Shown: positions 47,396 through 63,922 of the stretch, one piece after another | Layout: each line of letters starts with the position of its first letter | How positions within the stretch are numbered: the first letter of the stretch is position 1 | Source: an uncultured Chloroflexia bacterium | GTDB lineage: Bacteria > Chloroflexota > Anaerolineae > Anaerolineales > UBA4823 | Assembly (NCBI GenBank): GCA_963792075.1 | Contig: CAWBUW010000002.1 | Span: 376,369-440,368 of the forward strand | Length of the DNA: 64,000 bases | Direction of reading: 5' to 3' | Position numbers and translations under genes: made by a program | The notes under the pieces: generated by a model | What the model was told of the DNA's origin: nothing | Database searches by the model: none | What the model saw: the letters and a program-made list of their open reading frames with translations, nothing else

Positions 47396-47427
47396 ATTTG
47401 CCGGGAGCCTTGCAGCTCCCGGCAAAT
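47396..47427 (-). terminator. Stem-loop downstream of decaheme gene
   Basis: atttgccgggagc-cttgca-gctcccggcaaat. Confidence 0.55.
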
Positions 47428-47475
47428 TTTGTACCTCAGAGTTGGGTCTGAGGTCACAGGACCTAGGGTTGGGGC

Positions 47476-49773
47476 CTAGGGCCGGGTGAACTTGCTAACA
47501 TCACCGCCGAGGTCCTTGATTGAGTCGTAGATGATCTCAAGCACGTACTTCGGGTTGTGAATACCAGCGCCCGGGTTCGAGCGGAGCAAGTGGTAGTTGT
47601 AGGTGGCCTTCAACAGAGCCGGGGTGAAGTTGGCGTAAGCAACTTTCTTGCCATCTTTTTCATCGGCCTTGCCATCGCCATCCGCATCCGCAAAGAAGTA
47701 CGGGCGAGACGTGCGATCGTAGACGATGCCCATGCCGGCTGTATCCTTGGCATAGGTCAGGATCTGAGCTTCCAACGCATCGCGCATCGTGCGGTACTCG
47801 TCGCGGACGCCTTCTGTCACGTTGCCATCGCCGTCCCAGTCAGTCGTATCGGTTGGGAAGCGGATTTCATCCGGGTTGTCAACGCCGTGGCAGGCTTTGC
47901 ACGCTTCAGCCAGGGGGCGGCCATCGTGAACATCGTGACAGCCAACGCAGCCGGCTTTATCGTTTACTGCAATGTGCGTGTTCGCACCCACATAGGTCTG
48001 GTCAGCGTACTCATAAGCGATATGAGCATCGGAGCCGAACCAAATGGCCGCAATGGCCAGGTAGTGGGCGTTCTTGAAGGTGAGCTTGTCGCTGACTTCG
48101 TTCGGATTTGTCACGCCAGCCGCGGAGATAGCACTATCGAGATCCTTATAGGAGGCGCGGCCCTGGTGGCACAGGATGCAGATGTTCGCATCTACCGGTG
48201 TGGTGAACTTGCCATCGGCATCTTTCGGTGCGAAGCTTACGGTCTTGCCGCTGGGCAGAAGTACAGAGGTAACTGCGTAGCGGGCGGGGAAGCCGGCAGC
48301 TTCATCATGGCAGGTTGAGCACATGAAACCATCGCTCGAGTGTTGTGGGCCAATGCCTACATTCGTGGAGGAACCATTGACGTATGCAACGGTACCGCCA
48401 CCCTCGATGAACTCGGGCAGACCGGTGGCGCTGTGGCACTTGGCGCAGCGGTAAGGAACTTCGCCTTCGCTGTCCCAATCGCGGAAGGCCATGGCGGCAC
48501 CCGTGAAGTGACCAGCATCCTCGCGGGTCAACGTCGCCATATCGACCGGGGTAGCCAGCTTGGCGTTCATATCTTCGATGGAGTCGTAGAGCAGCTCGAT
48601 GATGTACTTGCCATTATGGGCAAAGGCGCCAGGATCCTTGACGGAAACCTGGTAGTTATAAGCTGCCTTCAGCAGGCGAGCAGACCAGGCATTATAGCCG
48701 ATCGCCGCACCCTTATCATCCTTGGCGGGCTGGCCATCGGGGCCGGCAACCAGGAAGTAAGGATAGGTTGCACCATCATAGGTGATCGGGGTCTTGGTGA
48801 CCTCGTTGGCATACGTCTGCATCGAGGTGAGCAGGGTTGCCTGCAGGCCAGCGATCTCGGCAGCAATGCCTTCGGTGACGTCACCATTGCCATTGTAATC
48901 CTTGGTCGAAGCCTGGGGCATGCGGATTTTCTGCAGATCTTCCACAGTCTCGACGCCTTCGTGGCACATGCCGCACTTTTCGACACGGACGGCCGTCGCG
49001 TGCTGATCGTGGCAGGCTGTGCAGGTGTCAATGCCCTCGGTGTGGGTGAACTTGACGTCATAGGATTTGCCGTCGTATTCGTAACCCATCTGGGCCTGGG
49101 AGCCATAGAAGGTGGCGCCAGCGGCGAAGTAGTGCACGTTGCGGAAGCCAAATTTAACTTCCTTGCCATCTTTGGTTACCGGTGCGACTACTGCATCTAC
49201 ATCGGTGACGGCAAAGTCAGCGATCTGCTTGTCAACGCTGACCTTGGACTCGCGTCCCTGGTGGCAGGTCATGCAGATGGCTTCGCCCGGTGCAGAGGTC
49301 TCAACAACCTTGCCGGAGGGGAAGGTTACGGAGGTCAATGCCTGGGCGGCCGCGTTGTGGCAGGTTGCGCATTGGATTGTGCCAGCAGGAGCGGGCACGG
49401 CTGCGTCGACTTTGCCAACCTCAGAGCCATCGGCGCCAGCAAAATCCAGGAAGCCCTGGGAAGTGTGGCACTTGGCACAGGAAGTAGGTACTTCGGGGGG
49501 AGTGCTGGCAGTCCAGTGATTGAAGGCTTCAGCATCGACCGCATTGTGGCCAGAGCTGGCCCAGGCGTCCTGATAGGGGACATCCTTCACCACCGGCGCT
49601 ACCGGTTCAGGGCAGGCAGGGGCTTCCGCAGCGGGAGCTGCCGTAGGACAAACTTTTTCTGCAACGACCGGGGCTTCGACGGCCGGTGTCGCTGAAGGGG
49701 CTGAACAAGCTGCCAGGACCAGGGTGAGGCCCAGCAGCAGCAGCCCTAAAATTATCAGTGTTTTTGCTTTCAT
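47476..49773 (-). CDS. Decaheme c-type cytochrome lipoprotein (two tandem 5-heme modules)
   Basis: LAAC lipobox, 10 CxxCH, internal duplication. Confidence 0.9.
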   Translation of the reverse strand: MKAKTLIILGLLLLGLTLVLAACSAPSATPAVEAPVVAEKVCPTAAPAAEAPACPEPVAPVVKDVPYQDAWASSGHNAVDAEAFNHWTASTPPEVPTSCAKCHTSQGFLDFAGADGSEVGKVDAAVPAPAGTIQCATCHNAAAQALTSVTFPSGKVVETSAPGEAICMTCHQGRESKVSVDKQIADFAVTDVDAVVAPVTKDGKEVKFGFRNVHYFAAGATFYGSQAQMGYEYDGKSYDVKFTHTEGIDTCTACHDQHATAVRVEKCGMCHEGVETVEDLQKIRMPQASTKDYNGNGDVTEGIAAEIAGLQATLLTSMQTYANEVTKTPITYDGATYPYFLVAGPDGQPAKDDKGAAIGYNAWSARLLKAAYNYQVSVKDPGAFAHNGKYIIELLYDSIEDMNAKLATPVDMATLTREDAGHFTGAAMAFRDWDSEGEVPYRCAKCHSATGLPEFIEGGGTVAYVNGSSTNVGIGPQHSSDGFMCSTCHDEAAGFPARYAVTSVLLPSGKTVSFAPKDADGKFTTPVDANICILCHQGRASYKDLDSAISAAGVTNPNEVSDKLTFKNAHYLAIAAIWFGSDAHIAYEYADQTYVGANTHIAVNDKAGCVGCHDVHDGRPLAEACKACHGVDNPDEIRFPTDTTDWDGDGNVTEGVRDEYRTMRDALEAQILTYAKDTAGMGIVYDRTSRPYFFADADGDGKADEKDGKKVAYANFTPALLKATYNYHLLRSNPGAGIHNPKYVLEIIYDSIKDLGGDVSKFTRP

Positions 49774-49985
49774 TTACATTCTCCTCAGTGAATTTATTAC
49801 TAAACATTATTGAAACGGGGCTATTCTTCCTCTTACTACAATAAAATCGATTCTCCTTTCTCTTTAGAATATATGTGAAAAACCTCATAAACAGACATAC
49901 CGTGCAATTGTACACCAGAAATGAGAAATCGATTAGTGAAATTTACAACTTCTAATCTAAGTTTACAGGATTGTAAGCAACCAAA

Positions 49986-50029
49986 AAGCGAAAAGTCAGG
50001 GGTGCAATTGCACCCCTGACTTTTCGCTT
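49986..50029. terminator. Perfect 44-bp palindrome, probable terminator
   Basis: aagcgaaaagtcaggggtgcaa|ttgcacccctgacttttcgctt just after the stop at 50045. Confidence 0.65.
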
Positions 50030-50044
50030 AAGAAAGAAAGGAGA

Positions 50045-51740
50045 CTACTTTTCAGGCGCGCCCTGTTGGATCCACTGCTTTAGCGCTTCCAATTCCTGCG
50101 CATCGAGCTGGCCAAAGTGGCCTGCCGGTTGGCTTTGTTTTTGAACGATCAGGCTGTTGGCCGGGTCCCCGGATACGATCACAGACCCATTGGTCCCGCC
50201 TTTCATCAGGCCGGCGTAACTGGTAAGATCCAACCCCATCATGCCTCCGGGGGTGTGGCAGGCACCACAGCGTGATTTCAGCAGAGGGCCAAAAGTCGCC
50301 TCATAAGTTAATGGGCTTCCGCCGATGGGAGCAGACGGTGTCGGCGTTGGCGGGATTTGAGATTGCAGAATCTCGCGTAGCTTGGGGGCGTTGAAGCCGG
50401 CAAATTCCCACACGTTGCTATGGCAGGCGCTGTTCGAGCAGAAAGAGGTGTTATCGGTGCCGCCTGGGTTGCTTGTGTTGTGACAGGTAGAGCAAGTGGA
50501 ATCAAACGCATCGCGGTGCAAGCCGATCCAGTTCGAGCTCAGGTGCGATTCGGGTTCAGGACCCCGGCTGATCTCAATATCGGTGACGAAATCTTGTGCG
50601 CCGGCAACGACCGGGATCGAGTGACACAGGTTACATTCCAGCGGCACGGATTCATTGTTGGCGTCCAAGTGCTTGCCATCATGGCAGCGGAAGCAGCCAG
50701 GTGTATAACGGTGGCCTACGTTGTTTGGGTGGGTATTCCAATCCGATTTTTGGTCCAGATAAACCGAACTGGTGTAGATATCCTGGACGGCTTTGATCGC
50801 TGTCTGGATTTTCTCCTGGTTCTGGCTGTAATAATCTGGGTAGTAAGACTTGTAGAAATCATCCAGGGCGGCAATGCGGTTCAGCCCCTGGGTCTCGCTG
50901 GTGTATGCGCCGCGCAGTACTTCGATGCTCTGTCGCCGGATTTCGGGGATGCCAACGTCAATTAGCTTCAGATTTATGGAACTATCCACCGAGACTTCGG
51001 GCATGGGGACCAGGTGGGTGATCCGGTTGTGGCAGGTGATGCAGTCCATATCTTTTAGATCGGTTTCTTTGATGCTGGAAGGGTCAAAGCCGGACTCGAT
51101 ATCCACAAATTCACTGTAAGTACCGTCGTCATTATATACACGCACGTAAGGGATGATCTGTTGTTCGAGGTCAGAGGAGTAGTACAGGACGCGGTTTTCG
51201 ATGTGCCAGTGAATGCCTTTCCCCAATCCCTGGCGCTTACTGCCGCCGCCGGTCTTCAGGATCACGAAGGTGCTCGAGGGGGTGTTATCCCGGTCATCCC
51301 CGAAGGTACGGATTTCCTTCAGGCTGTCTGAGGAGAACTTCTCCGGGTAGTGGCATTTTTCGCATGAACTCACGCGCCGGGCGCATGTCTATCGCCCGGA
51401 TGGGGAACTCATAATTATGGAAGAGTGTAGTCACTACGTGGCGTAAGTCGCCTGCCTTGCGGGTGAACTGCGTGGCGATAAAACCTCGGCCAAGATGACA
51501 TTCCACACAGGCAACGCGAGCATGCGGGGAAACCTCATAAGCGGTATATTCTGGCGGCATGGTGTGGCAGGTTTCGCCACAGAAGGGGGCCGAATTGGTA
51601 TATTCCCAACCATAGGCCCCGCCTACCAGCAGGGCGACGGTTAACAAACCCAAGACGGCATATGGCAGTACCTTGATCCAGGTCGGGGTTTCCTGGGGAG
51701 GGAAGAAGAACCTCCTAAGCATTGCAGTAAATTTTTTCAT
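50045..51740 (-). CDS. NapC/NirT-family membrane-anchored multiheme cytochrome (7 CxxCH + CX3CH + CX4CH), +1 frameshift at ~51367
   Basis: N-terminal TM, EYTNSAPFCGETCH, SPHARVACVECH. Removing one base joins RPARE-SCEKCH. Confidence 0.8.
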
Positions 51741-51871
51741 TATTTCTCGTTTCTCCTTAGCTAAATCTAATCTCTATTTTATCCGAAAAAATGAAATTAA
51801 ATGAATTTTAATAAAAAGTGGCGATGCTGTTATTTTCAGCCATCGCCACAAACCACTGAGGAGAGGTTTTT

Positions 51872-52153
51872 CTATTTGTTTGGAACGTCCGCTTTTTGGA
51901 GCCGTGCCAGCCAGACGGTGATCATGATCACCAACATCCCTGCTGCCATCCCAGCCACTTCAGGCAGCCGCTCTGTGATCTCAATCACCAGTGGGCGACC
52001 GATCCGAGTGGGGGTGAGCATGAATTCAACGAAAGCGTTGATCAGGCTGGTCAGGTGAGTGATTACATATCCATCGATCACAATCGCAGCCGCCACGAAT
52101 GGGGCAGCGATCACGATAGTCCACAATGAGATGTACAGGTTGATCTTTTTCAT
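51872..52153 (-). CDS. Small 2-TM membrane protein
   Basis: Two hydrophobic segments, SD AAGGAGG. Confidence 0.6.
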   Translation of the reverse strand: MKKINLYISLWTIVIAAPFVAAAIVIDGYVITHLTSLINAFVEFMLTPTRIGRPLVIEITERLPEVAGMAAGMLVIMITVWLARLQKADVPNK

Positions 52154-52237
52154 CGCAGCCTCCTTCCTTTTCTTTAACTATAAGATACTCCCTCTTGGGG
52201 GCATATTCAATAGGGAAAGCAGCCTATTTTGGGGGGA

Positions 52238-52270
52238 TAACCGCCCTACCACGGCAACTCCCAATGAACC
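52238..52270 (-). repeat. Solo end of the 41366-type element
   Basis: Exact reverse complement of 41359-41391 (33 bp). Confidence 0.7.
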
Positions 52271-52279
52271 TATTCTATT

Positions 52280-52930
52280 CTATGGTTCGATCAAGCCCTT
52301 GCGGATGGCGTATTTAACCAATTCGCTGCGGTTGTGCAAGCCGAGTTTGCGCATGATGTTTTCCCGATGACGGGCAACGGTGTGTTTACTGATGCTTAGC
52401 TGGTCGGCAATGGTATCATTGCTTGCGCCTTCGGCAAGCAAAGCCAATACCTCTTGCTCTCGCTCGGTCAGTTCTTCGATTTCATCTGTGGGTTCGCCGT
52501 CCGTGTGCTGGTAGAAATCTGAAACCAGGATTTTGGCCAGAGAGGGGTAGAGATACACCTCATCCGCATGCGCTGCGTGGATGGCTTTGATCAGGTCATC
52601 TGCAGCAGCCCGCTTGGGTACGTAACCATCGGCGCCGGCGGCGAGCATCTCAAAGAAATACTGTGGGTCTTCGTGAATGGTCAGGGCTACTACGGCCATG
52701 CTGGGGTGGGCAGCTTTTAATTGGCGGGTAGCCTCGATTCCAGAGATGTCCGGCAGCGTGATATCCATGATCACTACATCTGGTCGCAGGCTTTCCGCCA
52801 GTTCTAAAGCCTGCCGTCCGCTGCTGGCCTGACCTACGATGAGGATATCTCCCTGGCTTTCGAGCAATAAGCCCAGGCTGGTGCGAACGATTTCATGATC
52901 ATCGACAAGCAAGACACGAATTACACTCAT
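52280..52930 (-). CDS. NarL/LuxR-family response regulator
   Basis: REC domain plus LTEREQEVL...GASN..IA..L.IS.HTV..H. Confidence 0.93.
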   Translation of the reverse strand: MSVIRVLLVDDHEIVRTSLGLLLESQGDILIVGQASSGRQALELAESLRPDVVIMDITLPDISGIEATRQLKAAHPSMAVVALTIHEDPQYFFEMLAAGADGYVPKRAAADDLIKAIHAAHADEVYLYPSLAKILVSDFYQHTDGEPTDEIEELTEREQEVLALLAEGASNDTIADQLSISKHTVARHRENIMRKLGLHNRSELVKYAIRKGLIEP

Positions 52931-54405
52931 CAGGTCCTCTTGGTTTCTTGTACAGGGACCGTCACCAAGACGGCGGTGCCCTGTCCAGGAGTGGAAATGA
53001 TTTTACAGATTCCGCCAATTAACAGGGCTCGCTCTTGCATCCCCATCAAGCCCAGGTTGGCCCCACCGATTTTATGGTTCAGTGTTTTGGCCACATCGAA
53101 GCCGCACCCATTATCCTGGATTTCCAAAGAAAGCTGGCTGTCCTGGAAGTCCAGACTGATCATTACCTGGCTGGCGCTTGCGTGGCGAATCACATTGGTG
53201 ATGGCTTCTTGAGCGATGCGAAAGAGCGTGACGCGTAATTCAGCCGAAAGCTTGCTTAGCGGTCCCTGGCCGTGTACTTCCACCTTGACGGGTGAATTTT
53301 GGGAGACGTCACGGGCGTACCAACGCAGCGCGGCCAGCAGTCCCAGGTCATCCAACTGTGCCGGGTGCAGCCCAGCGACCATGCGCTGTAACTCCAGGAG
53401 GCTGTTGTTGGTAATTTCTTCCAGCCGGACTGCCTGCCGGATAGGATCGGAGGTATTTGAGGTAATGTTTTCTTTCAGACTGCGCAGCCCAATGCTGATG
53501 GCGGTCAGCGCTTGGCCTGTCTCATCATGCAGCTCGCGGGCGATGCGGGAGCGTTCCGTTTCTTGCGCGGTAACAGTACGGTGGAGTAATTCGTTGCGCA
53601 GTTGTTCCAGGCGGGTGCGTTCCTCAAGCTGGGTTTCGCGGAGAACTTCCAACTGCCGGGTAGTTTCGAACTCGAACGCACGCAGTGAACGGACGATAAA
53701 TATCGCCGCCATGCAGGCCATGGCCGCGCGCAGGAGCTGGACGGGAAAACCAAACCATTCGAGAAAAGTAGCAGTATTGATAACCGTTGACGGGAACAAG
53801 CGTGAAGGCGAAGCGAACAATTGGCCGACCATACCATATACCCAAAAAGCGACGGCTGCCAGGGTTACATCTAAGGCGAAAGAGGTCATGCCAGAGGCAG
53901 TGAAACGGCGCTGCTGGACGAGCAAGCCGGCGGCGGCAAGCACGGCACCGGGGATCGCCAGCGCGTAACGGGTATATACATCATATGCGGTTTGTTGTTC
54001 TGCGGTTGAATAAGGGGTGCGTGAGATGATTGCCAAACCCAGCAGCCAGATTCCGGCGGCGGCCAGGGTGACCAGCCACTGCAGCCGCGGCCGGCTGCCA
54101 CCGTTGATCAATTCAAAACCAAAGATTAATAACAGGAGGAAAGAAGAAGCCAGCATGAAGAGGCGCATAGGGAACAGAATATGTATGTTAGATGAAGCAA
54201 AATCCTGATTCTGGATCAAGAACATCTCTACCCATTCGTGGCCACCGTGCACCAGGCCAAACCAACCCAGCGGACGCAGGGCACGCGCAAATTCCATTTT
54301 AGGTGCGTGACCCAATTCGAGCAAGACAGCGAACCCCATGCTGAAGAAGCTCAGGCCGTAAAAGAAAAAGATATCGGTGATATGGTGGCTAAAATAGTCC
54401 TGCAT
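52930..54405 (-). CDS. Membrane-integral HisKA_3 sensor histidine kinase
   Basis: About 6-7 TMs, ERSRIARELHDETGQ, QEAITNVIRHA, DNGCGF, GLMGMQERA. Confidence 0.92.
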   Translation of the reverse strand: MQDYFSHHITDIFFFYGLSFFSMGFAVLLELGHAPKMEFARALRPLGWFGLVHGGHEWVEMFLIQNQDFASSNIHILFPMRLFMLASSFLLLLIFGFELINGGSRPRLQWLVTLAAAGIWLLGLAIISRTPYSTAEQQTAYDVYTRYALAIPGAVLAAAGLLVQQRRFTASGMTSFALDVTLAAVAFWVYGMVGQLFASPSRLFPSTVINTATFLEWFGFPVQLLRAAMACMAAIFIVRSLRAFEFETTRQLEVLRETQLEERTRLEQLRNELLHRTVTAQETERSRIARELHDETGQALTAISIGLRSLKENITSNTSDPIRQAVRLEEITNNSLLELQRMVAGLHPAQLDDLGLLAALRWYARDVSQNSPVKVEVHGQGPLSKLSAELRVTLFRIAQEAITNVIRHASASQVMISLDFQDSQLSLEIQDNGCGFDVAKTLNHKIGGANLGLMGMQERALLIGGICKIISTPGQGTAVLVTVPVQETKRT

Positions 54406-54415
54406 GGAGGCCTCA

Positions 54416-54457
54416 AAACAAATGGGCTGCCCATCTTTCCGGGCAGCCCATTTGTTT
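54416..54457 (-). terminator. Stem-loop after cytochrome b gene
   Basis: aaacaaatgggctgccc-N8-gggcagcccatttgttt. Confidence 0.6.
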
Positions 54458-55646
54458 ATTTTTCTGGTGCACCTGCTTTGATCCAGGCAATGACTTGCTC
54501 GATCTCTGCCGGTGTGAGCTGGCCGGGGTGGCCGCCCTGGCTTTGTATCTGGATAATCATACTTTTATCCGGGTCATTGGGAGTAATACCCGGGCCACTT
54601 TTGCCGCCTTTCAGCGCGTCGGCATATGAGTCCAATCGCAAGCCACCAACTGCGGTCGTATAGTGACAGGTGCTGCAGCGATCGTGGAACAGGCCGGCGT
54701 ATTTGCCATCCCAGGTGTCGGCCCCAACCGGTTTGTTGGGGTCAGGCGTGGGCGTGGGAGTGGGGGTAGGGCGCGGTGTGGGGGTAAGCGGCACAAAGGC
54801 TTGTACAGTTTCACCCCGCGGCACGGTGGTGATCGCCGTGTTTTCCATGGTGACGAACTGCCACAACCCTATGGCAAACACAAGCGTTAGCACGCCAGCA
54901 ACCGGGTAAAAAACCTGCTGGCGTTTGCGCAGTACGGCTGGCTCGGGTTCCGGGAATGCCTTGCCGGCTTCGATCAACCTCAATTCGGCGGGATGCTCAT
55001 CTTCCATTTCGTGGTGAGTCAGCTTGCCGGTGAACATGCTTTTATTGAAGGTCTTGATGTGCACGTTATAGAAGTGCCACAAGATGATCGCCAACACAGC
55101 CAGGATAGCCTCGCCGCCGTGGGCCGCCTTGGCTGCGGGGATATACTCACCTGGCAAGAAGCGGGCAGATGCAATCGGGTTCCACATCATAAAACCGGTG
55201 ATCGCCATCACCAAAGTGCCCCAGACAACGGCCAGGTATTCCATTTTTTCGCCGTAGTTATAGCGCCCGTAGTAAGCATGGTGCTTGCGTTGGCCCAGGT
55301 CATAGAGCACATCTTGCATGATATGCTTGGCATCATCGATCGTGGGCAGCATAGTCCAGGAGACGCGGTGCACAAAGAGGCGATTGAGCATGGCGATCAC
55401 GTGATAAGCGCTGGCAACCAGCATCACAATCGCAGATGCGCGGTGGATCAGGCGTGTTGTTTCGATCCCCCCCAACATTCCGATGAAGAATTGGCTGATC
55501 GGAGCGCTGAAAAACTTCTGCGCCAGCCCGGTCATCCCCAGGATGCTGAAGGAGACCAGGAAAACGATATGTTCGATCCTCTGATCCAGGCTGAAACGAA
55601 TGTAGACCTGTTGCGTGGTGCCGGCAGTGTGTTCAGGTTTACTCAT
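54456..55646 (-). CDS. FdnI-like diheme cytochrome b fused to C-terminal monoheme c domain
   Basis: RF...QRIEH, IHR, RYNYGEKMEY, AHGGEA...WHFY, then CSTCH. Confidence 0.85.
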   Translation of the reverse strand: MSKPEHTAGTTQQVYIRFSLDQRIEHIVFLVSFSILGMTGLAQKFFSAPISQFFIGMLGGIETTRLIHRASAIVMLVASAYHVIAMLNRLFVHRVSWTMLPTIDDAKHIMQDVLYDLGQRKHHAYYGRYNYGEKMEYLAVVWGTLVMAITGFMMWNPIASARFLPGEYIPAAKAAHGGEAILAVLAIILWHFYNVHIKTFNKSMFTGKLTHHEMEDEHPAELRLIEAGKAFPEPEPAVLRKRQQVFYPVAGVLTLVFAIGLWQFVTMENTAITTVPRGETVQAFVPLTPTPRPTPTPTPTPDPNKPVGADTWDGKYAGLFHDRCSTCHYTTAVGGLRLDSYADALKGGKSGPGITPNDPDKSMIIQIQSQGGHPGQLTPAEIEQVIAWIKAGAPEK

Positions 55647-56880: not shown

Positions 56881-57596
56881 TAAGACTTGCCTCCCGAATT
56901 GCGTTGGGTTGTATTTTTCATCTGCTTTTGATATTCCAGGGTGTGATACTCTTTCATTTCATCTTCGTTCAACTTACCTGTAAAAATACTCAAGTTCAGG
57001 CGTTCGATATGGACGTGATAGAAGTGCCAGATCAAGACGAAGATCGCTGCTATCACCGCCTCGGTGCTATGCGCCATCTTGGCGGCGGGGATGATCCCAC
57101 CGGGGAGAACCAGGGTCGCCTGGATGGGGAACCATAGGATGAAACCGGTGACGACCAGGATGCTGATCCCAACGAAGAGGATCCAGTAGGTCACTTTCTG
57201 CTCAAAATTGAACTTGCCGAATTTGGGCTTTTCGTTGCTCAAGAAAAGCAAGTATTTCACCATTTTCCCGGCATCCAGTACATCTTGCCAGGTGGGCAGC
57301 ATCTCGCCTGTGAGCTTCCGGCGTGCCATCTGTACGATCATGTTCCCCACGTGGTACAACACTTCAAGGGTCAATGCGATGGCAGCGATACGATGGATTT
57401 GCTGGATCGTCCGGACACTTTCTGGAGTGGCGAGGAGCACATGACTCCAATCAGTCGTGCGATATTTTTGCGGCAGGCCGGTTAACAGCAGCACGGTAAA
57501 GCAGAGCAGCAGCAGTGTGTGTTCCCAACGCTGAGAAAGCGAAAAGCGCGGGAAGTAGCGGACAGTATGCACGGAAGGTGTGTTTTTAGGGCTCAT
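56880..57596 (-). CDS. FdnI-like cytochrome b subunit
   Basis: QRWEH, IHR, KFNFEQKVTYW, AHSTEA...WHFYH. Confidence 0.87.
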   Translation of the reverse strand: MSPKNTPSVHTVRYFPRFSLSQRWEHTLLLLCFTVLLLTGLPQKYRTTDWSHVLLATPESVRTIQQIHRIAAIALTLEVLYHVGNMIVQMARRKLTGEMLPTWQDVLDAGKMVKYLLFLSNEKPKFGKFNFEQKVTYWILFVGISILVVTGFILWFPIQATLVLPGGIIPAAKMAHSTEAVIAAIFVLIWHFYHVHIERLNLSIFTGKLNEDEMKEYHTLEYQKQMKNTTQRNSGGKS

Positions 57597-58717
57597 TGTA
57601 GGCCACTCCTTACGCGCGCGACGATCGCACGGATGATTTGAAGTACGACGTAAATTATCAACAACCAGGAGACGACCGGGGTGAAGGAGCTATAAAACGC
57701 TTCGGTATAGAAGAGGAAGGGCGTTTTCTCCAGGCTAATTTTGTTATGACCGGTCCAGGCTCCCGTCCAATTCGGTCCGGCCGTCGGGTGGCATTTCTGG
57801 CAGGTAGCCAACAGATTTGCCGGGTTCACGCTGGAGCGTGGATCATCGGTTTTAAGGATCGTGTGCACACCGTGGCAATCGGTACAGACCGCGGTGTCAT
57901 GCCAGATGGTAGGCCAGCGGGCTTTGTAGACCGAGACTTCGACGCCGTGCCAGGACGTGCTGTAAATACTGTACACATCAGAGGGCAGGTTATATTTTGC
58001 CATCAATTCGGCATTGGCATGGCAGCCTGCGCACAGCTCCGGGGATTGGATGCGGAACTGGGTGGTGCGTGGGTCCTGCACGTTGTGCACACCATGACAG
58101 TCTGTACACACAGGGACATCGGTATTATTTTCTTCGATCAACGCTTTCCCATGCACAGAGTCTTTGTATTGGTTGTAGATCTCGCCATGGCATTGGCTGC
58201 AGGTGGTGGAAATGAGCGCCCGCGGCTCATTTGGGTCCCGTACATCGTGCGCACCGTGGCAGTCTGTGCAGATGGGAGCATTCAGGTTACCTGCTTCGGC
58301 CGCCTTGTTATGCATGCTGTCCAGCGTCTTGGCATAATTGGCGGCATGACATTTTTCGCAGGCCTGGTAGTAAGCCCGGCTGAACGAGCGCGCATCCGGG
58401 TAAACCTGTGCAGGGTGTGGGTAGGTGGTGATCGTGGTGTGGCATGCTTCGCACTCGATCCCTTGTGGACTATGCACAGAGTTAGCCAGCATTTTGGAGT
58501 CAATAAAGAGCGAAAGTTTTTCTCCGCTGGGCAGGGTCATGCTCAGGTCTGGGTTGCTGTGACAGCTCAGGCAGTATTCCTCGGTTTTTTGCGGCGGATT
58601 GCCTGCTGGATCACCCGCCTGCGCCGGCCAGGCCCAAACCAGGACACCGAAGCCGGCCAGGATAAAGGCTGCCCATAATACGGCAGCCGGGAATTTGCAC
58701 AGTTTTATTCGGGACAT
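57593..58717 (-). CDS. Nonaheme c-type cytochrome with C-terminal TM (paralogue of 55639-56880)
   Basis: 9 CxxCH, same spacing as its paralogue. Confidence 0.87.
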   Translation of the reverse strand: MSRIKLCKFPAAVLWAAFILAGFGVLVWAWPAQAGDPAGNPPQKTEEYCLSCHSNPDLSMTLPSGEKLSLFIDSKMLANSVHSPQGIECEACHTTITTYPHPAQVYPDARSFSRAYYQACEKCHAANYAKTLDSMHNKAAEAGNLNAPICTDCHGAHDVRDPNEPRALISTTCSQCHGEIYNQYKDSVHGKALIEENNTDVPVCTDCHGVHNVQDPRTTQFRIQSPELCAGCHANAELMAKYNLPSDVYSIYSTSWHGVEVSVYKARWPTIWHDTAVCTDCHGVHTILKTDDPRSSVNPANLLATCQKCHPTAGPNWTGAWTGHNKISLEKTPFLFYTEAFYSSFTPVVSWLLIIYVVLQIIRAIVARVRSGLQ

Positions 58718-58745
58718 TCCCTAAACCTCCGGTAAATAGTGTTCA

Positions 58746-58913
58746 TCATTCTTGGGAATCATTCTGGTCTAAATCGGGCTCTTGCGGTGGCGGAACGATC
58801 AAACCAAGCCGCCGGAGCAAGTATGAGATCCCCAGCATCACGAGGAGAGGAACCAGGCAGCGAAGAATGAAGAACAGCGCCACAAATATGGGATTGGCTG
58901 AAACTCTATCCAT
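58746..58913 (-). CDS. Small 55-aa single-TM protein heading the cytochrome c/b operon
   Basis: AAGGA SD. MDRVSANPIFVALFFILRCLVPLLVMLGISYLLRRLGLIVPPPQEPDLDQNDSQE*, below the ORF-track cutoff. Confidence 0.6.
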   Translation of the reverse strand: MDRVSANPIFVALFFILRCLVPLLVMLGISYLLRRLGLIVPPPQEPDLDQNDSQE

Positions 58914-59027
58914 CTGTCTTCCTTTGCTTAAGAGATGATTAAGTATAATCTAAAAACGTACTAATCAACAGGCAAAAATATTCATCCTTCCTTAATTGAA
59001 TTGTGAGCCTGCTACATAAATCCAAAG

Positions 59028-59058
59028 GGCTGTCCCAAAAGCTTCTTTTGGGACAGCC
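59028..59058. terminator. Hairpin made of MITE-like TIRs, probable terminator after nrfD-like gene
   Basis: ggctgtcccaaaag-ctt-cttttgggacagcc. Confidence 0.55.
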
Positions 59059-59121
59059 TGCCTTTCTTTACCGGAAAATGAGGGCATTGGGTGGCTTAGC
59101 GCCACCCAGTGCCCTCATCTG

Positions 59122-60342
59122 CTAATGCTCTTCTTCTTTGGGGAAAAGAGGCAGGAATTTGACCCCCAGGGTTAGCATCAACAAGCCATAACCCATGATG
59201 CCCAATGCCACGCCCCATTCTGGCAAGGCGGGCCAGTAATGTACGGGTTCGAGCACATACTGCGTGCCAGGTGAGTAGGATAGAGGCACAAATAAACCCG
59301 AGACTGTGACGTTCCAACGGTTGATCACCAAACCGATGACGGCCATCAGCGCGCCGAATACCAGGGCCACTGGCTGCTTGTTCAGGCGTGGGTGCAGGAA
59401 GATGATCACCGGTATCAGGAGCCCCACGATCACCTCGCCAAACCAGAAGCCGAAGTTGTAAGGCGTCTGTTGGTTGAGCATGTGCAGCGCTTCGTTGACG
59501 GCAGGTGTGCGACCATAGTAAGTCACGGCAGCCAGGTCCCAGAACTTCAAGTAGGCGTAAGCCAGCAGGCCAAAACCGCTGGCGCGAGCGATGGTGCGCA
59601 GAACGTTGTGCGGTACCAGGCGCTTGCCCATCACCCACTCCAGGATGAAGGACACCGCCATGGTCACGGCCGGGCCAGTCGCGATGGCCGATAAGATGAA
59701 CATGATCGGCATGCTGGGCTTAAACCAGATCGGGCGGGATTTGACAATCCCGTAAGTCGCGCCGAGGGAAGACTGGTGGAGCAGGGAGATCATCAGGCCC
59801 AACAGCGCAAAGACCGGGGTAATTACGTGCATGAAGTGACCGACTTTACGCAGCCAGGGCCAGCGGTCGAACAGGCGCGATTCAAACAAGACTGGCGAGA
59901 ACTCCATCACCATAATGATCAAGTAGAGCGTAATGCACCAGGTGATTTCCCACAGCACAGAGTGCACATTCCAATACACCCAGGGATGCCAGAAACGGTC
60001 CGGGCGGCCGATGTCCATGACCAGGGTGAGCAGGGCGGAGGTATAGCCGACGAACCCGACAAAAACCGCCAGGCGGACAATGGACTGGAAGCGCTTGAGC
60101 CCCAACAAGTACACCACAGCCGAGAGCGTAAAGGCGCCAGCTCCGAGGGCAATGGAGGAAAGATCAATGGTGATCCACAATCCCCAGGGAACGGTGTTGT
60201 TCATGTTGGTGATCCACAGGCCGTTATAAAAAACTTCAAAAGCGGCGACCAGGCCGACGGCCAGCAGGATGCCTATTAATCCCAGCCAGGCAAGCAAGCC
60301 TGGTGAGACAAACGATTTGCGTTCGGTGGTGAGGGGTACCAT
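59122..60342 (-). CDS. NrfD/PsrC-family membrane subunit (DsrP/QrcD-like)
   Basis: PWGLWI, DIGRPDRF, SVLWE, LHQSSLG, RW, about 10 TMs. Confidence 0.9.
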   Translation of the reverse strand: MVPLTTERKSFVSPGLLAWLGLIGILLAVGLVAAFEVFYNGLWITNMNNTVPWGLWITIDLSSIALGAGAFTLSAVVYLLGLKRFQSIVRLAVFVGFVGYTSALLTLVMDIGRPDRFWHPWVYWNVHSVLWEITWCITLYLIIMVMEFSPVLFESRLFDRWPWLRKVGHFMHVITPVFALLGLMISLLHQSSLGATYGIVKSRPIWFKPSMPIMFILSAIATGPAVTMAVSFILEWVMGKRLVPHNVLRTIARASGFGLLAYAYLKFWDLAAVTYYGRTPAVNEALHMLNQQTPYNFGFWFGEVIVGLLIPVIIFLHPRLNKQPVALVFGALMAVIGLVINRWNVTVSGLFVPLSYSPGTQYVLEPVHYWPALPEWGVALGIMGYGLLMLTLGVKFLPLFPKEEEH

Positions 60343-60345
60343 GTT

Positions 60346-61176
60346 TTACAAGCCCTCCTTGGGCGGCAGGTAATACACACTTGGTTCGGTGCCCAATTCT
60401 TCACGCAGCCGGAGGCTGGCATTGTCTGCCAATACCTTAGAAACCGGGCTGCTGGGGTCCTTTAGATTGCCAAAGATGCGCGCTCCCACCGGGCAGATGT
60501 TTACACAGGCTGGGGTGGCTTCGCGGTCTTCACCCGGCATCAGTCCTGCTTCCAGGCCGCGGTCGATGCGATGGATGCAGAAGGTACATTTTTCAACTAC
60601 CCCGCGTGGGCGGCGCTCGACTTCCGGCGTGCCCCAGGTAGGAACATATGGGTTTTCATCGGTGCGCTCTTTCCAACCGAACTTGCGCGCATCGTACGGG
60701 CAGGCGACTTCACAGTACCGGCAGCCGATACAACGGTTGTAATCCATCACCACCAGGCCGTCTTCACGGACGTAGGTGGCTTTGACCGGGCAAACTTCGA
60801 CGCAGGGAGCAACCTGGCAGTGCAAACAGGGGCGGCTGAAATAGAAAGTGGAGTTGCCGGTAGTTTTTTCTGTGACTACGATGTTCCAGGGCTTATCCGT
60901 GTTGACATCGTTAGTCGCGGTGCAGGCTCGCAGGCAGTATTCACAGCCGATGCACTTATCCAGATCGATGACCATGCCCCAGTGATAGGGGCCCGAAGCG
61001 CCATGCCCTTCGGTGGGGGCAGTATCTTCCAGGCCGGATTGTTTCAGGCTGGCAAAGGGCGAAAGCGGTCCCGTGGTCAGGGCCTGCGCCGCCAGGACGG
61101 ATCCCAGCGCGGTCCCACCGATTGTCAGGAAGTCGCGCCTGGTTAATTCAAGCTTGACTTTTTGTTTTTTACTCAT
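60346..61176 (-). CDS. Tat-exported 4Fe-4S protein (NrfC/DsrO/QrcC-like)
   Basis: TRRDFL signal, CIGCEYC...C, CLHC..APC..VCP, CIGCRYC..ACP, KCTFC...PACV..CP. Confidence 0.92.
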   Translation of the reverse strand: MSKKQKVKLELTRRDFLTIGGTALGSVLAAQALTTGPLSPFASLKQSGLEDTAPTEGHGASGPYHWGMVIDLDKCIGCEYCLRACTATNDVNTDKPWNIVVTEKTTGNSTFYFSRPCLHCQVAPCVEVCPVKATYVREDGLVVMDYNRCIGCRYCEVACPYDARKFGWKERTDENPYVPTWGTPEVERRPRGVVEKCTFCIHRIDRGLEAGLMPGEDREATPACVNICPVGARIFGNLKDPSSPVSKVLADNASLRLREELGTEPSVYYLPPKEGL

Positions 61177-62173
61177 TTTCATTTTCCTCAACCACGCGGA
61201 TGCGCTGCCCGATGATCCAGGCAGTCACACTGCCCGTAAGCAGGCCAATGATCGCGCCCTGGAGCAAGCCGGTGTAAAGGCGGACGGCAGACTGCTGCTT
61301 TAAGGTTGCAATCTGGCTATCCTGGTCAGAGACTTGTTTTTGCAATGCGTCTACGTTGGCCGGGTCAACCTTGGCAACCTCACCGCTCAATTTGACGATT
61401 TCATCGCGAGAGTGCACGGTGTCCTGGTGACAACCAATGCAGGCTTCCGAACCGACCGAGAAGGTATGACCCGTCGGTACCAGGCCGCCGATGGGGCTGG
61501 TCTCACGCGGTGCGGTATACATATGGCAGTTGGAGCATTCCAGGCCAGCCTGGGCATGCGTGCCATGCGTGAAAGATTCGCTGTTTTCCTTATGGCAGTT
61601 CGTGCATAACGCGGTGACTGTGGCAGCCATGGGTTTTTGAGCGTGAGGATCATGGCAGGCCTGGCACTGAATGTTAGCCTCGGCATGCTTGCTGGCGCGC
61701 CATTCATCGGTGGTGCCTTTGTGACAGGTCGCGCACAGGTCTGCGTTCGGTTTTACGGTCATCGGGTTCGCCGGGTGACCGGCAACCAGCGGGCCATGGC
61801 AGCTTTCACAAGTCACGCCTTCCTGGACGTATTCGCCAGTGGAGGCGTTAAAGCCGGTGGTATGGCAGGCCAGGCAGGCTACCTGAGAACCTAACTCTGT
61901 CCAATCACGCTGGAAAATAGGGGAGGAGAAGGCCTGGGCATGGCGGGTGGTTTCCCATTCCGCATGCAGCTCTTTGTGGCACATCTTACAGGTATCTGAA
62001 CCTGTGTAAGTGGTCGCAGCCGGTGGCTGAGCCGTTGGGGTGGCGTCCTGATGGGGCTGTTCCGCCAACGCCGGGGTGGGCAGGCTGGCCAGTCCGCCGA
62101 TGACCAGGCTCAGGATGAAGATGCCCCAGAAAGCAAGGCTGGGCTTGGACAGGAAACGATTGGGTTTTCTCAT
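61169..62173 (-). CDS. Octaheme c-type cytochrome with C-terminal TM anchor
   Basis: 8 CxxCH, signal peptide, coiled coil and TM at the C-terminus. Confidence 0.87.
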   Translation of the reverse strand: MRKPNRFLSKPSLAFWGIFILSLVIGGLASLPTPALAEQPHQDATPTAQPPAATTYTGSDTCKMCHKELHAEWETTRHAQAFSSPIFQRDWTELGSQVACLACHTTGFNASTGEYVQEGVTCESCHGPLVAGHPANPMTVKPNADLCATCHKGTTDEWRASKHAEANIQCQACHDPHAQKPMAATVTALCTNCHKENSESFTHGTHAQAGLECSNCHMYTAPRETSPIGGLVPTGHTFSVGSEACIGCHQDTVHSRDEIVKLSGEVAKVDPANVDALQKQVSDQDSQIATLKQQSAVRLYTGLLQGAIIGLLTGSVTAWIIGQRIRVVEENENE

Positions 62174-62435
62174 GGTTTTCTCCAGATTGGCTTGACATTG
62201 GTTCGGCGCATAGCCTAAAAGACTACACAACCAAAAGACACATTGGAATACTTTGTATTTTAAGTCACAGATTAGAAGAAGATAAGTACAAAATGTCACA
62301 AATACTCAGGGATATATGTAATCTTGCGGTGAAGTAAATATGTCTGCTGTTAGGCAGTCCCCCAGAAGCAAAATTTCTCCCCGTATTGGGGAGAAATTTT
62401 CATATCGATCTAGAAATTTGGATTCTGGGTGGCGT

Positions 62436-62553
62436 GGGGTTATCCAAAAAGACAAAAAACAAGGAGAAAATATACGTATCTGTGGGGGTGGTGCGAAGCA
62501 CCACCCCCACAGATACGTATTAATTTTCTTCCTTTGTTTCTTTTTGGACAGCT
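62436..62553. mobile_element. Palindromic MITE-like element, copy 3, nested in another hairpin
   Basis: Same family as 13837 and 46677. Flanked by IR tctgggtggcgtg / cacgccacccaga. Confidence 0.8.
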
Positions 62554-62575
62554 ACACACGCCACCCAGACTTATA

Positions 62576-63863
62576 TCAAGGAGCCGGCGTGGTTTCACCG
62601 GCAGTTGCAGGCCGGTCATGGTAACCTGTAGCGCCTGCGAGTAATTCTTCATCGGTCTTAACCGACCCCATCCCGCCGCCATGACAGTTACGGCAGGCAT
62701 AGTTCAGGCTGATCTGCGAAAGGGCGTAGGTTTTTTCTGTGTCGCCTTCCGTAACGGTGACAAATTGGTCAACCTGGGTTGGGTCAATCGCCATCAGGTG
62801 CGTGCGGATGTCACCGGTAAACTTTTGAGGATCGCCCCAGGCCGACTTGTCACTCAGGGGCATGTGACATGAAGTGCAGGCCACGTTTATTGCGGTGTGA
62901 ACCGCGTTTTTCTGGTACTTGGCCTCCTCAAAGTGACAGTTTGCGCACTGCGTGCGCGTGGTTGCCACTTTCTCCTGGCGTAACTGCACCACGCCCGAGT
63001 GCGGATCATGGCAGTCCGCGCATTTCAACGTCAAATGTTTGCTCTGGAAGATTTCATTATACTGTTCTTGATGGTTGATGAAGCCATCCGCAGCGTCTAC
63101 CTGTTCCACTTTGTCGCCCCGGTGGCATTGGCCGCACAACTCCGAGTTCGCGCTCGATTTTCATGGCGATGCCCTTCGGGTTGGTCACATGTAAGCCGCC
63201 AGGTCCGTGGCATGCTTCGCAGCGCACGCCATCTTGTGCCCAGGTTCCAACCAGGCCAGGCAGCCCATCCTGGTTGCCATTCGGGCTGTAGCCCGTAGTG
63301 TGGCATGAAACGCAGGTAGAGAGCAGTTTTTCCTGGCCAGAATTGTAAGTAACCCAACCTGCATCTTTGCCCACGCTGGGGTTGGCAAAGTTCCACTGGT
63401 TCAGGTAGGCTGTATCCCCCGTCTTACCTGGCGCATCGGTGATGAGGTAACCATCCTTGCCAATGAAGTTCGCCTTCCAGGCGTAGCCGCCAACGACGTA
63501 CAGGATATCATTCCAGGTATAGCCCTCAGGCAGCTTATCTAATTTGGTGAAGGGATAGCTGGGGGCCTGTCCGTCGACGATTTTGTTCAGGTTCCAGGGA
63601 TGGCCTGATTTCATGTACGTATCGTAAATATCAGGATGGCAGCCGCCGCAGGTTTGGTCCCCTACATAATCCGCGCCGGATGGGCCGGCAGGGCCGGCCT
63701 CCCCTTGTGTGCCAGCCGGTCCCTGGGGGCCGATCGGACCAGAGGGTCCGGCTGGCCCTTCCGGACCGATGGGGCCTTCTTCCGGACCAGCACAGGCGAC
63801 CAACAGTGCGGATGCAGTCAAGATAGCTATGATTAACAAAAATTTGCGAAAGCTCATGCTCAT
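62576..63863 (-). CDS. Octaheme c-type cytochrome lipoprotein with collagen-like stalk, +1 frameshift at ~63147
   Basis: LVAC lipobox, about 11 Gly-X-Y triplets, 3+5 CxxCH. Removing one base gives [14 protein letters not shown]. Confidence 0.8.
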
Positions 63864-63922
63864 TCTCCTCAGTTCAGTGTGAGATTATTATATCAGATAT
63901 TAAAATCAGGTTAAGGAAGGGT

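Follow-up and report, generated by a model that had tools for sequence, protein, structure and literature searches.

How could a bacterium that is enclosed by a single membrane, and that encodes no porin-based exit, hand electrons from its quinone pool to an acceptor beyond the cell wall? The question is raised by a cluster of multiheme cytochrome genes at positions 47476-63863 of a 64,000-nucleotide stretch of DNA (referred to as the window, i.e., the whole stretch that was analysed; G000:C2:376369-440368) in an Anaerolineales genome of 5.8 Mb, which is assembled in 12 contigs and is 99.1% complete. The cluster is composed of 15 frames, all on the minus strand, which make up 13 genes (Table 1). 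Here, we discuss the evidence that these genes would encode a chain for extracellular electron transfer, leading from quinol to the outside of a cell with a single membrane, a reading toward which the evidence, in our judgment, tips slightly.

In the proposed chain, complex I and other dehydrogenases would feed electrons into the menaquinone pool, from which they would be withdrawn by one of four alternative quinol dehydrogenases, i.e., an ImcH-like protein, two split CbcL-like units or a module composed of an NrfD-family subunit, an NrfC-type ferredoxin and an octaheme cytochrome. Two of these dehydrogenases share a monoheme domain on a flexible Pro/Thr linker, which may act as a swinging hand-over arm. 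The next acceptors would be two cytochromes, a decaheme and an octaheme protein, each tethered to the outer side of the membrane through a lipid anchor and a long spacer. These lipoproteins may in turn reduce insoluble or large acceptors beyond the wall, such as Fe(III) and Mn(IV) minerals, humics, electrodes or partner cells. The chain may also run in reverse, and its expression is probably controlled by an adjacent pair of a histidine kinase and a NarL-type regulator.

One argument for an extracellular chain is the heme content of the cluster, because the density of heme-binding motifs is far above chance and both apparent frameshifts in the cluster are absent from short-read contigs. The 15 frames contain 52 CxxCH motifs (split over the frames as 10+6+1+1+9+9+8+5+3), one CX3CH motif (frame 51294-51740, residue 54) and one CX4CH motif (frame 50045-51373, residue 312). 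When the residues were permuted inside each protein in 2000 rounds, a mean of 0.22 and a maximum of 3 CxxCH motifs were obtained, compared to the 52 that are present. The density in the cluster is 10.3 CxxCH per 1000 amino acids (aa), compared to 0.083 genome-wide (all stop-to-stop frames of at least 150 aa), i.e., it is about 120 times higher, and 7 of the 20 frames in the genome with three or more CxxCH motifs are found in the cluster. The G+C content of the cluster (53-57%) is similar to that of the flanks.

A preliminary description of the window had counted 52 CxxCH and two atypical motifs, all on the minus strand, had distinguished three kinds of quinone-pool interface and a dedicated HisKA_3/NarL pair, and had noted that a molybdopterin subunit, a hydrogenase and a porin were missing. 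The recount was identical, and the interfaces (the NrfD/NrfC/octaheme module, two pairs of a cytochrome (cyt.) b and a nonaheme cytochrome, and a NapC/NirT-type protein) as well as the regulatory pair (HisKA_3 and HATPase, Response_reg and GerE) were all matched by domain families; the same domain-family scan gave no match to molybdopterin, hydrogenase or porin families among the 15 frames. The suggestion that the cluster may extend past the window was not borne out. The cluster terminates at 63863, inside the window, and the region past the window end harbors aspS on the plus strand (tRNA-synt_2, GAD and anticodon-binding domains), a Nudix/NrtR regulator, a 4-alpha-glucanotransferase and a nucleotidyl transferase, with no frame of three or more CxxCH motifs in the 26 kb beyond the end. 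A catalytic reductase just beyond the window, which had been named as the finding that would speak against a wire, is found neither there nor among the conserved neighbors in 80 related loci (see below). On the other flank, a 159-aa frame that matches no family is followed by a MatE transporter.

Two genes of the cluster are each broken in the window into two frames, i.e., the octaheme lipoprotein gene (63057-63863 and 62576-63139) and the NapC-like gene that encodes the ImcH-like protein (51294-51740 and 50045-51373). In relatives, each of these genes is found as one frame, of 414-427 aa with 8 CxxCH and of 564-569 aa with 7 CxxCH, respectively. Short-read contigs from four public runs, of which the best may derive from the source sample and would then check the assembly rather than provide independent support, differ from the window over 47400-63900 by two insertions or deletions only in 16.5 kb, both located at the frameshift sites. 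The base at 63147 is missing from the contigs in 4/4 runs, and the base at 51367 is missing from those of the single run that has depth there. Because the extra bases are absent from the short-read contigs and the genes are unbroken in relatives, the splits are most likely consensus errors of a long-read assembly, which would mean that neither gene is broken in nature; true pseudogenes and programmed frameshifts were considered and rejected in view of the same contigs and the in-frame relatives. Other genes of the genome may hold similar single-base errors. In the few-contig relative G003 (L020, G003:C1:482300-502299), the decaheme and kinase genes are likewise split into two frames, a pattern that hints at an error of the same type in a long-read assembly. 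Elsewhere in the present genome (L103, G000:C7:1051485-1054977), two adjoining minus-strand frames of 580 and 497 aa, with 18 CxxCH motifs each, may represent one 36-heme gene split by an assembly error.

A second argument for the extracellular chain is found in the distribution of the genes, because their linkage survives rearrangement and a catalytic partner is found neither near the cluster nor in related loci. The gene encoding the decaheme lipoprotein is present in 20/24 genomes of the same family. In other families of the order, it is matched (E 0.001 or better) in 7/16 genomes, where four matches are strong (near-full or half-length) and three are weak and confined to the N-terminus. 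An even sample of the phylum (301 genomes) has the gene in 22 genomes, all of the same order; in this sample, 0/6 genomes from other orders of the class and none of the remaining genomes have it. Among species genomes, at least 561 of 599 pattern matches to the decaheme protein were confirmed as relatives.

The best 80 of these relatives (contigs from one genome per species) were used to analyse linkage, defined as a position within 10 kb of the decaheme gene; several loci are on short contigs, so the counts in Table 1 are lower bounds. All 80 loci carry Chloroflexota or Anaerolineae titles, in agreement with the Chloroflexota host proposed in the preliminary description, and Candidatus Amarolinea aalborgensis, Bellilinea, Leptolinea and Thermoflexales are represented among them, as is the isolate Thermanaerothrix solaris 4228-RoL (locus L099), in which the decaheme, nonaheme-2 and cyt. 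b-c genes are found together. In the literature searched, this isolate appears in a validation list only. The comparison, which had been suggested as a synteny check, revealed that cluster genes are linked to the decaheme gene across these loci in shuffled order and orientation, i.e., the linkage outlasts rearrangement. Clustering of the remaining frames identified Ccm system I genes, a thioredoxin-like protein, zinc-ribbon proteins and class I cytochromes c as other recurrent neighbors; no molybdopterin or other catalytic subunit and no porin recurs among the neighbors in the 80 loci.

The reading of an extracellular chain is also favored because the cell envelope and the quinone pool of the host fit such a chain. 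The genome gives no match to Omp85/BamA (controls positive in 7/14 genomes) and none to LpxC (also with positive controls), consistent with the single-membrane host assumed in the preliminary description. The outer-membrane beta-barrel partner of a porin-cytochrome conduit is matched neither in the 15 frames (porin families) nor in the genome (Omp85). MenA is present (238.5 bits), and MqnA of the futalosine pathway has no match in the genome. Outside of the cluster, three NuoH-type (complex I-type) loci, two heme-copper oxidases and 10 molybdopterin-family matches are found. Judged by these genes, the host is a respiratory generalist, not a fermenter, i.e., the view of a lineage usually described as fermentative does not hold for this genome. 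The public runs that contain the stretch are labeled as soil and freshwater sediment metagenomes, and no RNA run was among those listed for positions 50000-59999 of the window.

The candidate quinol dehydrogenases provide a further argument, because they resemble both of the Geobacter inner-membrane enzymes, ImcH and CbcL. Homologues of ImcH are described as having N-terminal helices adjoining an atypical CX3CH motif, about six CX2CH motifs (range five to nine) and a partial likeness to NapC/NirT, and the homologue of Anaerolinea thermophila has a single helix (PMC6295460). The ImcH-like protein of the window displays the same combination. A hydrophobic segment at residues 24-42 would form one transmembrane (TM) helix, not three, and is followed 12 residues later by the CX3CH motif; seven CX2CH motifs are present, and the N-terminal region matches NapC/NirT (PF03264, 36.6 bits, cut-off 24.1). 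An intact ortholog (locus L017) scores 57.3 bits against the NrfH model, under the cut-off of 134.2. Both atypical motifs are kept in 8/8 of the sequences that cover each. The protein belongs to a very large family, with at least 5645 of 8000 scored candidates at E 0.001 or better, and the best 120 are 53-84% identical and of Anaerolineales type; the name ImcH is absent among these 120, which carry generic titles (NapC/NirT family, nitrate/TMAO reductase-like). The C-terminal PSCyt1 domain, i.e., the putative hand-over arm, shares 45% identity (E 1e-27) with its counterpart in cyt. b 2, where the domain also resides behind a Pro/Thr-rich linker.

CbcL is composed of nine c hemes and a HydC/FdnI-like diheme b part, and the survey in PMC6295460 lists 0 CbcL homologues and one ImcH homologue in Chloroflexi. 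The zero would be expected if fused forms alone were sought. In the window and in all relatives inspected, the b and nonaheme c parts are encoded by separate genes, which overlap in the window. Both cytochromes b are above the PF01292 cut-off of 30.1, and the formate dehydrogenase gamma models are below their cut-offs; cyt. b 1 scores 79.3 bits against TIGR01583, under the cut-off of 115.85. Four histidines are common to the translations of the two cyt. b copies. The cyt. b 2 gene probably starts at 55664 rather than at the longest-frame start. The nonaheme proteins have a C-terminal membrane helix and, in most orthologues, nine CxxCH motifs. Consequently, the b part and the nine-heme part of CbcL are both present but not as a single polypeptide, and these pairs may be CbcL-like in function at most; they are not filed as members of the CbcL family.

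The fourth candidate dehydrogenase combines an NrfD-family protein and a Tat-exported (twin-arginine translocation) multi-cluster ferredoxin, i.e., the components of an NrfCD-type quinone module, with an octaheme cytochrome. The latter carries a signal or anchor at its N-terminus and a TM helix at its C-terminus, and its gene probably starts at 62173 rather than at the longest-frame start. The ferredoxin just passes the DsrO model (207.4 bits, cut-off 200) and scores 185 bits against QrcC (cut-off 400). The NrfD protein has no match among PDB sequences (phmmer), and its best NCBIfam match is QrcD (300.8 bits, under the cut-off of 570). A Qrc complex or an alternative complex III is not encoded in the cluster, where PF00384 is not matched; the 10 genomic matches are all found elsewhere.

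QrcD is a subunit of a menaquinone reductase, and this closest match is what would be expected if electrons were to move inward. In such a chain, Fe(II), a cathode-like mineral, reduced humics or partner cells would donate electrons to the outer cytochromes, and the NrfCD and CbcL-like modules would reduce menaquinone, with oxygen or nitrate as the sink. The heme-copper oxidases and the molybdopterin-family proteins of the genome are possible sinks, homologues of CbcL, MtoC and MtrH are found in Fe(III) reducers and Fe(II) oxidizers alike (PMC6295460), and a cathodic current coupled to nitrate reduction is described for Ardenticatena (PMC5808234). However, the homologues of ImcH covered in PMC6295460 are confined to Fe(III) reducers. 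Furthermore, electron transfer from Fe(II) to menaquinone is uphill and needs energy, and a coupling device is not visible in the cluster. We regard a chain of this direction as rather improbable.

The extracellular chain is, in addition, favored because the proteins at its outer end resemble OcwA and OmhA, surface reductases of single-membrane iron reducers. OcwA of Thermincola potens (PDB 6I5B) is a cell-surface reductase of the outer cell wall (PMC6703420), and OmhA of Carboxydothermus ferrireducens (PDB 6QVM) is an 11-heme, S-layer-associated protein that is easily sheared off (PMC7829351). In an alignment of 12 sequences of the decaheme lipoprotein, the ten heme motifs and the lipobox Cys23 are invariant. 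The two halves of the protein are 35% identical (E 2e-59), and half-size relatives of about 380-420 aa with one pentaheme module are found in a sister family of the order (G039:C1:2027352-2028389, G186:C7:26656-27693, G304:C31:1781-2779 and G240:C71:8940-9920). The sequences fit an origin by tandem duplication. A linker at residues ~24-65 is rich in Cys-Pro (CPxCP-like) in 10/12 orthologues; it is reminiscent of disulfide-bonded hinges and may, by analogy, cross-link copies of the protein.

An AlphaFold2 model of the decaheme protein (predicted local distance difference test, pLDDT, 65; predicted template modeling score, pTM, 0.49) displays a helical bundle after each pentaheme module. In an exhaustive structural search with this model (48161 chains), the top seven matches are an octaheme nitrite reductase, three NrfA proteins, OcwA, OmhA and MccA, with Z scores of 8.8 (8rv0), 8.7 (6v0a), 8.7 (OcwA), 8.3 (OmhA), 8.2 (1oah), 7.8 (1qdb) and 6.2 (MccA); the remaining matches are at Z 4.9 or below. 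The alignment with OcwA covers 150 residues at an rmsd of 3.2. The NrfA-fold matches concern the second half of the decaheme protein, and the first half matches an HAO-like protein only (Z 4.9). A Foldseek search of the model against the PDB gave nothing at E 0.001 or better, with OcwA ranked first (E 0.8), and a profile search with the alignment against PDB sequences gave a single match, NrfA 3ubr (E 0.055). A Protein Atlas search identified Chloroflexota cytochrome clusters only, plus a half-size Bacillota cluster named NrfA-family (score 0.90). In MtrC, OmcA and MtrF, two pentaheme domains alternate with beta-barrel domains; the MtrC-type family PF22113 scores 34.2 bits over a short region of the decaheme protein of the window (residues 125-179 only), and MtrC-type chains are absent from the 50 matches listed in the fold search. 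The model points to an NrfA/OcwA fold, i.e., a pentaheme core followed by a C-terminal helix bundle.

Nitrite reductases and MccA dominate the list of structural matches, which raises the possibility that the decaheme and octaheme lipoproteins are enzymes rather than wires. Their substrates would be soluble oxyanions of nitrogen or sulfur (nitrite, hydroxylamine, NO, sulfite or tetrathionate), which they would reduce or detoxify in the zone of the wall with electrons supplied by the quinol dehydrogenases, and NapC/NrfH-type and NrfCD modules classically supply such enzymes. For OcwA, in vitro reduction of both nitrite and hydroxylamine is described, but its turnover with nitrite is only about one per minute (PMC6703420). 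In the decaheme protein, the CxxCK motif is absent, and in each half five non-motif histidines are conserved per five hemes, which leaves no obvious open heme, save at one variable position in the second half. Because of these five conserved histidines per five hemes and the absence of CxxCK, the sequence fits a wire rather than an enzyme. Moreover, the 54 c-type heme sites and four parallel quinol dehydrogenases exceed what is usual for a reductase of soluble substrates, for which long spacers behind lipid anchors would also make little sense. An enzymatic role of this kind is, in our view, unlikely.

The second outer protein of the proposed extracellular chain, the octaheme lipoprotein, has a lipobox cysteine in all eight alignment rows that cover the N-terminus. 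Its N-terminal fragment matches OcwA (6i5b_A) at E 2.4e-14, over residues 55-237 of the query and 5-183 of the chain with three CxxCH motifs aligned, and OmhA at E 2.2e-5; the intact same-genus ortholog (locus L017) gives E 5.6e-14 and E 3.2e-5, respectively. OcwA is one nonaheme protein in which a c554-like tetraheme part is fused to an NrfA-like pentaheme part and helix bundle, with two open hemes, 2 and 5, that have a His-His distal pocket (PMC6703420). As judged from the aligned region, the likeness of the octaheme lipoprotein to OcwA is to this c554-like N-terminal part, not to OcwA as a whole.

The lipobox of the octaheme lipoprotein is followed by 12 uninterrupted Gly-X-Y triplets, and 9-14 triplets are found in 8/8 rows that cover the N-terminus. 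The run scores 21.9 bits against the collagen family PF01391, under the cut-off of 27.2, and is uninterrupted and proline-rich, as are bacterial collagen-like proteins of the Scl and BclA type. In the whole genome, runs of at least eight consecutive G-x-x units are found in six frames of at least 100 aa. Of these six, three are proline-rich, and all three are lipobox multiheme cytochromes, i.e., the octaheme protein of the window, a five-heme protein on contig C1 and an 800-aa decaheme protein on contig C9; the other three are glycine-rich and have no proline. Among 92 related loci, a sample biased by selection around the decaheme gene, 14 proline-containing runs are located in lipobox cytochromes with 6-8 heme motifs, two are antisense to such runs and two are proline-free.

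The C9 protein (L101:2098-4500 = G000:C9:19097-21499) is a decaheme lipoprotein in which the lipobox is followed by 11 Gly-X-Y triplets, and it scores 86.5 bits against PF22113. This protein is another candidate for a surface cytochrome carried by a predicted collagen-like stalk, and the extracellular chain is favored also because the same genome encodes this MtrC/MtrF-type protein. The five-heme lipoprotein, with 10 Gly-X-Y triplets, is found at L102:244-6563 (G000:C1:72243-78562), followed downstream by a pentaheme cytochrome, a Tat-signal molybdopterin-family subunit, an FeS protein and an NrfD protein; this locus may encode a complex like Qrc or the complex iron-sulfur molybdoenzymes (CISM), with an extra cytochrome on a collagen-like stalk.

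These observations can be combined in a more speculative joint reading, which we consider possible although on balance doubtful. Here, a lipid anchor and a trimerizing, collagen-like triple-helix stalk would hold the cytochrome heads out through the wall, fed by the set of ImcH-like, split CbcL-like and NrfCD dehydrogenases, of which two would pass electrons via the identical tethered monoheme arm. As a triple helix, 9-14 triplets would be about 8-12 nm long. The heads would differ, being of the c554/OcwA type in the window and of the MtrC type and class-I type elsewhere in the genome. A trimer prediction, for which residues 25-260 of the intact ortholog of the octaheme lipoprotein were used in three copies, gave a score of 0.39, compared to a mark of 0.42 and controls of 0.00, and the structure model of this ortholog (pLDDT 36.6) is too poor for a fold search. 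In the literature searched, no paper was found that joins collagen-like proteins with multiheme cytochromes, and the stalk would be a device not described for cytochromes. If the joint reading is true, a group of bacteria that is very abundant in soil, sediment and sludge would respire minerals or humics through its own kind of electron conduit.

The presence of a two-component pair within the cluster, with a multi-helix membrane sensor region in the kinase that matches no family in the domain scan, and the redox-fluctuating habitats of the source runs (soil and freshwater sediment) would also suit a heme capacitor over oxic-anoxic swings or a redox signal to the kinase, with no net respiration outside the cell; with the kinase and regulator linked in only 33-34/80 loci, a pairing of dehydrogenases and decaheme protein that is more constant, and four quinol dehydrogenases that imply flux rather than storage, we consider this role very improbable.

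Several points weigh against the extracellular chain. The individual transfer steps, the direction in which electrons flow, the position outside the wall and the acceptor are all deduced from the genes. The NrfA/OcwA fold is also found in reductases of soluble substrates, and the fold alone cannot separate a wire from an enzyme; in addition, the decaheme model is only moderate by its pLDDT and pTM values, and the Foldseek search of it returned no significant match. The assignment to ImcH and CbcL of Geobacter (G.) sulfurreducens is based on motifs and architecture, and CbcL is one polypeptide, whereas the parts are found on separate genes here. NrfCD-type modules such as Qrc run toward quinone, so the module may operate in either direction. 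Because the genome also encodes oxygen reductases and gives 10 molybdopterin-family matches, respiration as such can be explained without the cluster. Finally, multiheme-rich Anaerolineales are reported as mostly planktonic, not anode-attached (PMC7399161).

The preliminary description had proposed a quinol-to-surface wire with two lipid-anchored surface cytochromes of 10 and 8 hemes. The anatomy and the host are as proposed for such a wire, and the hallmark of ImcH and the likeness to OcwA were added, but the extension past the window and the fermentative host were lost. The lipobox cysteines are conserved, and exposure at the surface would be predicted from the putative anchors and spacers. 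The extracellular chain is further favored because there is precedent in the phylum, i.e., Ardenticatena maritima, which produces current and has a surface multiheme cytochrome.

Table 1. Features of the cluster at 47476-63863 in the window, with the number of related loci (of 80) in which each gene is linked to the decaheme gene.
Feature	Position	Strand	Characteristics	Linked loci (of 80)
Decaheme lipoprotein cytochrome	47476-49773	-	10 CxxCH; lipobox LAAC, Cys23; Cys/Pro-rich linker; two tandem pentaheme modules	
Terminator-like perfect 44-nt palindrome with T-tract	49986-50029	-	Between ImcH-like and decaheme genes; consensus scan only	
ImcH-like quinol dehydrogenase candidate	50045-51740	-	One TM helix, CX3CH, 7 CxxCH, CX4CH; C-terminal monoheme PSCyt1 after Pro/Thr linker	43
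Small membrane protein, 93 aa	51872-52153	-	Two hydrophobic segments/helices; no family match	
NarL/LuxR-type response regulator	52280-52930	-	Response_reg 104 bits; GerE 77.5 bits	34
Histidine kinase	52930-54405	-	HisKA_3 52.8 bits; HATPase_c 53.3 bits; 5 hydrophobic segments	33
FdnI-like cyt. b 2 (cyt. b-c)	54456-55664	-	PF01292 42.3 bits; PF07635 32.7 bits; C-terminal monoheme PSCyt1	47
Nonaheme cyt. c 2	55639-56880	-	9 CxxCH	46
FdnI/HydC-like diheme cyt. b 1	56880-57596	-	PF01292 62.2 bits; overlaps neighbors by 4 and 1 bases	10
Nonaheme cyt. c 1	57593-58717	-	9 CxxCH; Paired_CXXCH_1 56.4 bits; TM segment 341-359	12
NrfD-family quinone-interacting membrane subunit	59122-60342	-	PF03916 122.5 bits; 9 hydrophobic segments	29
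Tat-exported multi-cluster ferredoxin, NrfC/DsrO/QrcC type	60346-61191	-	RRDFL motif; Fer4_11 and other Fer4	27
Octaheme cyt. c	61169-62173	-	8 CxxCH; Paired_CXXCH_1 and Cytochrome_C554; hydrophobic 7-25, 303-321; first gene of octaheme-NrfC-NrfD module	23
Palindromic MITE-like repeat, ~117 bp	62436-62552	none	Between octaheme lipoprotein gene and next operon; terminator-like hairpin, 20-pair stem 62475-62517	
Octaheme lipoprotein cytochrome	62576-63863	-	3+5 CxxCH; lipobox LVAC, Cys24; Gly-X-Y G30-D65; PF13435 Cytochrome_C554	7-8

Consensus scans, on which the following sites are based, identified terminator-like hairpins after the octaheme lipoprotein gene, the NrfD gene and the NapC-like gene, and a promoter-like site at 63914-63887. 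These elements suggest that the cluster is divided into several transcription units. The repeat after the octaheme lipoprotein gene, which resembles a miniature inverted-repeat transposable element (MITE), has 208 BLASTN matches in the genome; it is a palindrome, and the copy number is about half of this value. Another copy is found at 46684-46790 of the window. At 62498-62552, the short-read contigs display a depth spike and loose ends. The intergenic region upstream of the cluster (63864-64000) contains a ~50-bp repeat with 37 BLASTN matches elsewhere in the genome. The 93-aa membrane protein has weak homologues at the equivalent place in the loci of four relatives (G003, G006, G019 and G023).

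Anaerolineales rank with the most common bacteria of sediments, soils, digesters and anode communities, yet they are still mostly treated as fermenters or scavengers. The conserved gene set gives the generic claim of many heme proteins in Anaerolineae a testable anatomy, with quinol oxidizers on the one hand and outside proteins on the other, and one locus ties single-membrane systems (OcwA, OmhA) to Geobacter-type inner-membrane dehydrogenases. The collagen-like stalk on a heme protein offers a simple structural hypothesis. Mineral respiration by the organism is not shown by the cluster. Multiheme-rich, porin-less Anaerolineales have already been proposed as electron exporters (PMC7399161; preprint 10.1101/2021.08.23.457424), i.e., the general idea of electron export in this order is in print. 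In the literature searched, we did not find the conserved module set, the tandem NrfA-fold decaheme lipoprotein, the shared tethered monoheme domain or the collagen-like stalk, and no paper was found that joins OcwA with Chloroflexi; on ImcH in Anaerolinea, PMC6295460 was the one relevant paper.

A comparison with known systems shows which parts of the cluster are familiar. With the CymA-MtrCAB system of Shewanella it shares a NapC/NirT-type quinol dehydrogenase and a decaheme lipoprotein. In contrast to Shewanella, there is no MtrA/MtrB conduit and no outer membrane, and the decaheme protein of the window is, according to its model, of the NrfA fold. In the complexes Qrc, Hmc, Nhc and Ohc of sulfate reducers as well as in alternative complex III, a multiheme cytochrome c is joined by a Tat-exported multi-cluster ferredoxin and by an NrfD-family membrane subunit. 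The octaheme-NrfC-NrfD module has this three-part composition, and its best models are QrcD, HmcC, DsrO and QrcC, of which DsrO alone is passed and the others are under their equivalog cut-offs. Unlike these complexes, the module has no molybdopterin-fold subunit (QrcB, ActB) and no cytoplasmic subunit, and it is found in the context of putative extracellular cytochromes rather than of periplasmic hydrogen or formate oxidation.

In G. sulfurreducens, as here, several dehydrogenases are found in parallel in one organism. The ImcH-like protein shares with ImcH a TM anchor directly before CX3CH, several CX2CH motifs and the partial likeness to NapC/NirT; it differs by having one helix instead of three, an extra CX4CH motif and a tethered C-terminal monoheme domain. 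The CbcL-like units share with CbcL an FdnI/HydC-like diheme b part and a nine-heme c part, but these are two-gene units and are present twice. Compared to the ImcH and CbcL systems of Geobacter as a whole, there is no periplasm, there are no PpcA-type carriers and there is no porin-cytochrome conduit downstream.

The closest parallels at the outer end are found in single-membrane organisms. Carboxydothermus ferrireducens, a Gram-positive iron reducer in which the candidate quinol oxidases have CISM-type membrane anchors (PMC7829351), harbors OmhA, SmhA and related cytochromes, and its main surface cytochrome is of the same structural family as the two outer proteins discussed here. The latter are predicted to be lipoproteins, in contrast to that system, where the genes are, as far as the account in PMC7829351 extends, not clustered with ImcH- or CbcL-like ones. 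In Ardenticatena maritima 110S, which belongs to the same phylum but to another class, anodic and cathodic currents and a surface multiheme cytochrome are described, and the cell is presumed to have a single membrane, without BamA (PMC5808234). The presumed envelope is thus the same, and extracellular electron transfer is demonstrated there in both directions; the candidate in Ardenticatena is one seven-heme protein, ARMA_0580. Thermincola potens, finally, has a single membrane, no porin and exit cytochromes of the NrfA/c554 structural family, as does the system proposed here. The two kinds of module that are fused in OcwA would in this cluster reside on two separate lipid-anchored proteins, with enough conserved histidines for a predicted bis-His ligation of all hemes of the decaheme protein, and with collagen-like or Cys/Pro-rich spacers between the putative anchors and the cytochrome heads.

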